DNA of 64,000 nucleotides from Escherichia coli (GTDB lineage: Bacteria; Pseudomonadota; Gammaproteobacteria; Enterobacterales; Enterobacteriaceae), in NCBI RefSeq assembly GCF_003334815.1, contig NZ_QOWO01000012.1. One strand, 5' to 3'. The notes beneath the pieces are model-generated. The model was given only the letters and a program-made list of their open reading frames with translations, searched no databases and had not been told where the DNA came from. Shown here piece after piece: positions 50,754 to 50,887 of the stretch (the stretch's first letter is position 1; every line of letters starts with the position of its first letter). The translations under genes and the position numbers were made by a program.

Positions 50754-50802
50754 TGTAAATGCCGAATGAAGCGTTTATGCCGCATCCGGTAGTCCCGAAA
50801 CG

Positions 50803-50821
50803 TGCGGGGGCAACCCCGCAC
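50803..50821 (+). other. GC-rich hairpin in the glpK-glpX spacer
   Basis: GTGCGGGGG CAA CCCCGCAC, no T-run; preceded by a degenerate REP-like segment. Confidence 0.6.
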
Positions 50822-50887
50822 ACATCAATAATCCCTCCCTTCCCCTGTGCTACACTTCGCGCCATTCCTTACTGCTTAGAGTTTGCT

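Follow-up and report, generated by a model that had tools for sequence, protein, structure and literature searches.

Between the cistrons of an operon, REP sequences and stem-loops of the malE-malF type were reportedly described by Newbury and co-workers in 1987 as stabilisers of the upstream mRNA. Espeli and co-workers are said to have found in 2001 that intercistronic REP/BIME elements act either in stabilisation of the upstream mRNA or in attenuation of transcription. The known REP and stem-loop stabilisers of the intercistronic type have been summarised (PMC5927463). A related class was described by Dar and Sorek (NAR 2018, PMC6061677), who demonstrated that stable stem-loops without a uridine tract guard Rho-dependent RNA ends against PNPase and RNase II. 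In this class, the rut site lies immediately downstream of the stem-loop and is marked by an enrichment of C over G (PMC6061677).

We assign the element between glpK and glpX of Escherichia coli to this known class, in which a stem-loop protects a Rho-dependent end; it is located beside an intercistronic REP site and combined with an internal promoter, and the dependence of the RNA end at position 50826 on Rho and on exonucleases is something that we infer and not a result at single-site resolution. As in the examples of Dar and Sorek (PMC6061677), the stem-loop is stable and lacks a uridine tract, the 3' end is precise and located a few nucleotides past the stem, C exceeds G downstream, and read-through appears to be sensitive to bicyclomycin, here at the level of a region of about 800 nt. 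However, the glpK-glpX element differs from these examples in its location within a textbook operon instead of at the operon's end and in having a candidate rut site that overlaps the promoter of the next gene.

With the REP/BIME elements of the malE-malF type, the locus shares two features: a REP-derived palindrome a few nucleotides past the stop codon of the gene located upstream, which is the more highly expressed one, and the occupation of this site by a full REP or BIME in other strains. In contrast to these elements, the REP in the window (the whole 64-kb stretch of E. coli DNA that was analysed) is degenerate (25/35), and the RNA ends at a single-copy hairpin 11 nt downstream of the remnant. 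The GC-rich stem, the tetraloop and the precise 3' end are also known from canonical intrinsic terminators, whereas the lack of a U-tract, the failure of a consensus scan to detect the hairpin and the apparent bicyclomycin sensitivity of the downstream read-through are not. The promoter of glpX resembles other internal extended -10 promoters, with a TGn element in front of a TAnAnT hexamer, a poor -35, a transcription start site (TSS) 8 nt downstream and a monocistronic transcript of the distal gene; it is notable only for its C-rich upstream region and its very short leader of 24 nt.

In full-text literature searches, we found no paper on this hairpin, on a glpX promoter or on Rho at glpX. 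The key measurements are nevertheless already public, in supplementary tables, under the labels 'orphan' and 'novelTTS'.

Results

The spacer extends from 50754 to 50887 and has a length of 134 bp, as given in an earlier note that was made from this DNA, and it is bounded by the glpK stop codon TAA (50751-50753) and the ATG of glpX at 50888 (Table 1). It is base-for-base identical to the spacer of MG1655, and window positions (w) are converted to MG1655 coordinates (x) by x = 4166467 - w, a relation that was verified. Among strains, we observed spacers of 134, 135, 162, 170 and 229 bp. Since the frame of glpX is open through the whole spacer from an ATG at 50759 (50759-51898, an ORF of 379 aa), an N-terminal extension of GlpX was considered. 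This was rejected because the spacer lengths differ by non-multiples of 3 and because the TSS at 50864 lies downstream of this ATG. The fold of the whole spacer shows no unusual stability (z = -0.9); that of the 73-nt 3' UTR of glpFK is unusually stable (z = -3.0). On the minus strand, a terminator-like site consisting of a GC stem and TTTTTAT is located inside the start of glpX (50995-50976), and the regional total of such sites equals the chance expectation.

Table 1. Features of the glpK-glpX region, in window positions.
Feature	Position	Strand	Evidence and remarks
glpK stop codon TAA	50751..50753	+	sequence and K-12 annotation
Degenerate Y-type REP remnant	50757..50791	-	25/35 matches to the Y-REP of ERL04
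GC hairpin GTGCGGGG-GCAA-CCCCGCAC, terminal stem-loop of the glpFK mRNA	50802..50821	+	-16.9 kcal/mol
C-rich, G-poor tract, candidate rut	50822..50887	+	24 C and 8 G in 66 nt; overlaps the glpX promoter
Dominant glpFK RNA 3' end	50826..50827 (MG1655 4115641 / 4115640)	+	Term-seq and SMRT-Cappable-seq
glpX extended -10	50848..50856	+	TGcTACACT: TG 50848-49, TACACT 50851-56; poor -35
glpX TSS	50864 (MG1655 4115603)	+	SMRT-Cappable-seq, 40 reads (modest)
glpX 5' UTR, 24 nt, with weak Shine-Dalgarno AGAG (50878-50881)	50864..50887	+	conserved across genera
glpX CDS, class II fructose-1,6-bisphosphatase, 336 aa	50888..51898	+	
glpX intrinsic terminator	51919..51947	+	9-bp stem TTCCAGTCC-TTCG-GGACTGGAA 51919-51940, T7 51941-51947; mapped 3' end 51945

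Published Term-seq data for K-12 contain a 3' end at 4115641 on the minus strand, which is window position 50826 and lies 5 nt past the stem (Adams et al. 2021, PMC7815308, Supplementary file 1). It was detected with 548,119 reads in LB at OD 0.4, compared to 86,731 reads for the end at the glpX terminator (4114522, window 51945), and with 24,586 reads in M63 glucose (PMC7815308). The label 'orphan' was assigned to it only because its distance of 73 nt from the glpK stop exceeds 50 nt (PMC7815308). The same end was found by SMRT-Cappable-seq, in which whole 5'-triphosphate transcripts are sequenced (Yan et al. 2018, PMC6131387, Supplementary Data 1). Here, a transcript that covers b3927 and b3926 leads from the glpF TSS at 4118161 to a 'novelTTS' at 4115640 (PMC6131387). 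Among the 694 reads that start at 4118161, 174 stop at 4115640, 98 stop within 50 bp downstream and 19 pass the site, the latter with a median extension of 699 nt past 4115640 (PMC6131387). This means that about 93% of the glpF-promoter transcripts that reach 4115640 stop at or near it and about 7% read through.

Together, these data show that, at steady state, almost every glpF-promoter transcript ends 5 nt past the hairpin and thereby has a 3' UTR of 73 nt, made up of the REP remnant and the hairpin. The earlier note had suggested a role in RNA stability or processing, or else a partial attenuation by which glpX would be uncoupled from glpFK, and had named an absence of 3' ends at the hairpin as the observation that would speak against this. 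Such an absence is contradicted by the ends from both methods, and the suggestion itself is supported by the published K-12 data.

Further upstream, the Term-seq data contain a 3' end at 4118117 (window 48350) with 265,644 reads in LB at OD 0.4. It lies between the glpF TSS (4118161, window 48306), from which it is 44 nt away, and the ATG of glpF at 48377. This end could originate from a short leader RNA or from attenuation in the 5' UTR of glpF.

The hairpin has eight perfect pairs and a 4-nt loop of the GNRA type. It is followed by ACATCAATAA (ACAUC as the RNA tail), with no T-run in the DNA and no U-tract in the RNA, and a terminator scan made no call at 50802-50821. Its existence, its strength and its lack of a T-run had been recognised correctly in the earlier note, but the position 50803-50821 and the 9+3+8 anatomy given there have to be corrected to 50802-50821 and 8+4+8. 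The hairpin is the sole perfect one with at least 8 bp and at least 7 G/C pairs in the 64-kb window. As about 0.8 such hairpins per 64 kb are expected from first-order Markov simulations, the occurrence of the hairpin by itself is compatible with chance, and it is raised above that level by its conservation together with the RNA 3' end that was mapped 5 nt after the stem.

Every one of the 5426 complete E. coli genomes contains the hairpin, at a median of one place per genome and at two places at the highest. It is therefore single-copy, which rules out a dispersed repeat or a member of the REP family. Counted from the hairpin up to the ATG, a segment of 91 nt has an identity of at least 95% in 5404 of the 5426 genomes, and about 20 genomes are without it in intact form. 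In E. coli PSJ-12 (locus L004, 1145-1165 and 2490-2515), the stem is naturally disrupted by IS421, a member of the IS4 family, which interrupts the hairpin and has produced a target duplication of about 10 bp (GGGCAACCCC). The only common polymorphism seen between the hairpin and the ATG is position 50835 in the C-rich tract, where CCC[T/G/A/C]CCC occurs with all four bases in the set of E. coli strains that we compared.

At the genus level, a hairpin is present at the same position in 21 of the 23 spacers from Escherichia, Citrobacter and Salmonella, with stems of 6-10 bp and energies of -10 to -23 kcal/mol. In three cases, the hairpin is weak and rearranged, and it is missing from two lineages; decay or absence concerns a few lineages of Citrobacter. 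A covariation test on 12 distinct hairpin variants revealed no pair that was changed on both sides (0/8), while 89.6% of the cells were paired. A wider MAFFT alignment was too poor around the stem to be used for covariation, and no curated RNA family in Rfam matches the hairpin above threshold. Judged from this pair count, the helix is conserved as sequence, and its predicted structure is one without proof by covariation.

The REP-like remnant proposed in the earlier note is real, but decayed. Its 25 of 35 matches lie above the best scores of 20-23 that were obtained in 20 simulated windows and below the scores of 28-34 for eight intact REPs of the same window. The segment GCCGAATGAAGCGTTTATGCCGCATCCGG is located at 50761-50789, and the remnant is predicted to fold, as plus-strand RNA, into an imperfect hairpin (50760-50791). 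A consensus REP consists of the head GCCGGATG, an imperfect palindrome and a CTAC tail; the tail is absent from the remnant, and the head reads GCCGAATG in the window and GCCGGATG in other alleles of 134 or 135 bp. In an Rfam scan of 48000-53000 with E-values up to 10, the sole match was naRNA4, far below its threshold (19 bits versus 59.5). This weak match is explained by the similarity to REP, as naRNA4 is a REP-derived family. The NC_000913 annotation lists no REP at the glpK-glpX spacer.

The site of the remnant is occupied by a complete Z-type REP and a truncated Y in strain EcPF7 (170-bp spacer) and by a complete Z+Y BIME in strain ERL04 (229-bp spacer), and a further E. coli allele (L005) has the 162-bp form. 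The glpK-glpX spacers of Citrobacter and Salmonella contain REPs as well. The region after glpK is thus a hotspot for insertion of REP, BIME and IS421. The presence of a full REP or BIME at this spot in other strains had escaped the earlier note. We regard the remnant as a mobile repeat in decay, located in a 3' UTR that would be protected by the hairpin, whereas most of the RNA ends lie downstream of it. Elsewhere in the window, intact Y-type REPs (28-34/35) are located at 12898-13120, 17957-18041, 28645-28682, 34083-34120, 38482-38519, 57795-57832 and 62877-62914. Z-like partners were found at 12962-12997, 13085-13120 and 17957-17992, so that some of these sites are BIME clusters.

A second transcript in the SMRT-Cappable-seq data starts at 4115603, ends at the known terminator at 4114522 and covers only b3925 (glpX), with 40 reads (PMC6131387). 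Its TSS is located 8 nt past the extended -10. Because of the poor -35, this promoter is missed by a consensus scan; the earlier note, correct on hairpin and REP, had recorded neither the extended -10 nor the mapped TSS. We found TGnTAnACT in all 55 glpK-adjacent spacers of Enterobacteriaceae, at a distance of 31-33 nt from the ATG and in one case of 43 nt. These spacers were taken from the 51 of 80 fetched Enterobacteriaceae glpX loci that have glpK upstream, from three further E. coli alleles (L002, L003 and L005, counted among the 51) and from the window.

In 24 of the 80 fetched loci, from Klebsiella, Raoultella, Trabulsiella, Pluralibacter, Yokenella and others, the gene directly upstream of glpX is recG and not glpK. 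The recG gene was verified for L051 (335-2452), and the other 23 loci share the same upstream 3' coding sequence (L013, L022, L034, L038, L039, L041, L043-45, L050, L052, L054-57, L063, L064, L067, L068, L071, L079, L080 and L082). The -10 motif is kept in 3 of the 24 recG-type loci and in three loci with other neighbours. As it is kept there without an upstream glpK, we argue that the motif is a part of glpX rather than of the terminal region of glpK. In the recG-glpX loci, the breakpoint of the rearrangement lies inside the spacer, and most of them have no TGnTAnACT and about 50 nt between recG and glpX.

Downstream of glpX, the clean terminator reported in the earlier note was confirmed by its stem (51919-51940) and its run of seven T (51941-51947). 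SMRT-Cappable-seq shows read-through of this terminator into fpr (51945-52000), with 6 such reads among the 40 that start at the glpX TSS, and the RegulonDB operon b3924 appears there extended to b3925 and b3924.

The same layout is common to the 55 spacers, which represent about 20 genera: one or more GC-rich stem-loops, a C-rich tract, TGnTAnACT 31-33 nt before the ATG and a short leader. The stem-loops, by contrast, are unrelated in sequence among genera. Escherichia, Citrobacter and Salmonella have REP/BIME elements and the hairpin described here, Enterobacter, Leclercia, Lelliottia, Kosakonia and Phytobacter have palindromic units of the CCCTCTCCC/GGGAGAGGG type, and Atlantibacter, Cedecea and Entomohabitans have canonical terminators with T-runs. 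That one layout is built from unrelated stem-loops points to selection for ending and protecting the glpFK mRNA before glpX, with interchangeable parts. One further locus (L015, CALJUC010000178.1), from a metagenome-assembled genome named 'uncultured Moraxella sp.', has a glpK-glpX spacer of the Citrobacter type and a GlpX with 94% identity. Its contig is, by these sequences, probably mis-binned.

Discussion

Which process creates the 3' end at 50826? The earlier note had missed two observations that point to Rho, namely the C-rich, G-poor tract and the sensitivity to bicyclomycin. Averaged over the 55 spacers, the stretch of 30 nt that precedes the -10 contains 14.1 C and 4.2 G. Since the promoter overlaps this tract, the conservation of the C-rich sequence is not attributable to a rut function alone.

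The bicyclomycin-sensitive region peaks at 4115213, which corresponds to window position 51254 and is located 366 nt inside glpX (PMC7815308). In the 800 nt upstream and downstream of 4115213, DirectRNA-seq yielded 934 and 95 3' ends, respectively, in the untreated sample and 709 and 683 with bicyclomycin (PMC7815308). The Rho score of 9.5 (p = 1.7e-105) applies to a region of windows of about 800 nt; none is site-specific for 4115641, which was filtered out by the authors (PMC7815308). At a resolution of about 800 nt, bicyclomycin thus leads to an approximately sevenfold increase of downstream 3' ends, while those in the upstream window decrease by only 24%. The peak at 51254 may represent intragenic Rho termination of transcripts from the glpX promoter. 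Part of the bicyclomycin signal could accordingly be due to the action of Rho on these transcripts rather than on read-through from glpFK. Because of the 800-nt resolution, the position of the peak inside glpX and the small decrease of upstream ends, the Rho step is one that we infer.

Overall, we consider it moderately probable that Rho-dependent termination and exonuclease trimming to a protective stem-loop act together at this site, next to an independent glpX promoter. Ribosomes would leave the mRNA at the glpK stop codon, and Rho would load on the untranslated, C-rich and G-poor RNA just 3' of the hairpin. RNA polymerase would then be stopped at scattered sites in the promoter and in the early part of glpX. 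From there, the 3'-to-5' exonucleases PNPase and RNase II would trim the RNA until they are blocked by the stable, U-less hairpin, whereby the precise 3' end would be fixed and the glpFK mRNA protected. The conserved extended -10 would supply a basal expression of glpX that is independent of glp induction, and the small fraction of read-through would weakly couple glpX to the induction by glycerol. The 98 reads that end up to 50 bp downstream of the main site fit this mechanism, either as products of diffuse termination or as trimming intermediates.

Three other explanations have to be weighed against this mechanism. The hairpin might be a non-canonical intrinsic terminator that lacks a U-tract and, possibly aided by NusA/NusG, stops RNA polymerase at about 50826 without Rho. 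The precise 3' end 5 nt past a very stable GC stem of 8 bp would agree with this, as would the ending of about 93% of the arriving transcripts at or near 50826 and the true intrinsic terminators that related genera have at the same position. However, the tail ACATCAATAA has no T-run and was not called by the terminator scan, downstream 3' ends rise approximately sevenfold with bicyclomycin, and the scatter of the 98 reads within 50 bp downstream looks like diffuse termination or trimming intermediates. We therefore regard intrinsic termination as unlikely.

It is likewise improbable that the end is generated from a full glpFKX RNA by an endonuclease such as RNase E, with a cut in ACAUC|AAUAAU, after which the hairpin would protect glpFK and the glpX part would decay faster, as in malEFG. 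The 3' end does lie in an AU-rich, unpaired stretch directly after the stem, and REP or stem-loop stabilisers between cistrons are a known mechanism. Pure processing, on the other hand, would not predict that downstream 3' ends are restored by bicyclomycin. Moreover, although glpFKX belongs to the differential-decay set of Dar and Sorek (PLoS Genet), in the supplementary text files covered here it appears only in the operon list (supplementary file 2).

A third explanation, that the hairpin and the REP remnant are mere leftovers of repeat turnover with no selected role, that the exonuclease stop is incidental and that only the glpX promoter matters, could draw on the helix without covariation, on the loss or weakening of the hairpin in some Citrobacter lineages and on the insertion hotspot for REP, BIME and IS421, but it is decidedly improbable given that the hairpin is invariant in E. 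coli beside a highly polymorphic REP part, that in every genus glpK is followed by a strong stem-loop of some kind before the C-rich tract begins, and that the end at 50826 is among the more abundant ones in its neighbourhood. The response to bicyclomycin argues against all three alternatives, and so does a hairpin that stays invariant beside the hypervariable REP. Only a very slight chance is given to more elaborate roles of the conserved module of stem-loop, C-rich tract and promoter, such as a condition-responsive Rho attenuator that tunes the ratio of GlpK to GlpX (e.g. through translation or Rho activity during carbon shifts), or a 73-nt 3' UTR fragment that acts in trans as a sponge or regulator; the one observation in favour of such roles is how abundant the 3' end is.

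Taken together, glpFK and glpX behave as two largely separate transcription units with a leaky boundary, through which about 7% of the glpF-promoter transcripts enter glpX. This is an ordinary kind of operon boundary, but a real one; it will not surprise a specialist and it opens no new question. It modestly corrects the textbook picture of a single, co-expressed 'glpFKX' operon, for E. coli and, by sequence comparison, across Enterobacteriaceae. The spacer is also a natural example of how REP sequences, other palindromes and true terminators have been swapped in evolution for the same job. Suboptimal FBPase activity on glycerol has been noted before (PMC4227036), and the combination of high GlpK with low FBPase II is relevant to metabolic engineering that is based on glycerol. 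The boundary between the two units explains how the cell can make much glycerol kinase and little FBPase II.
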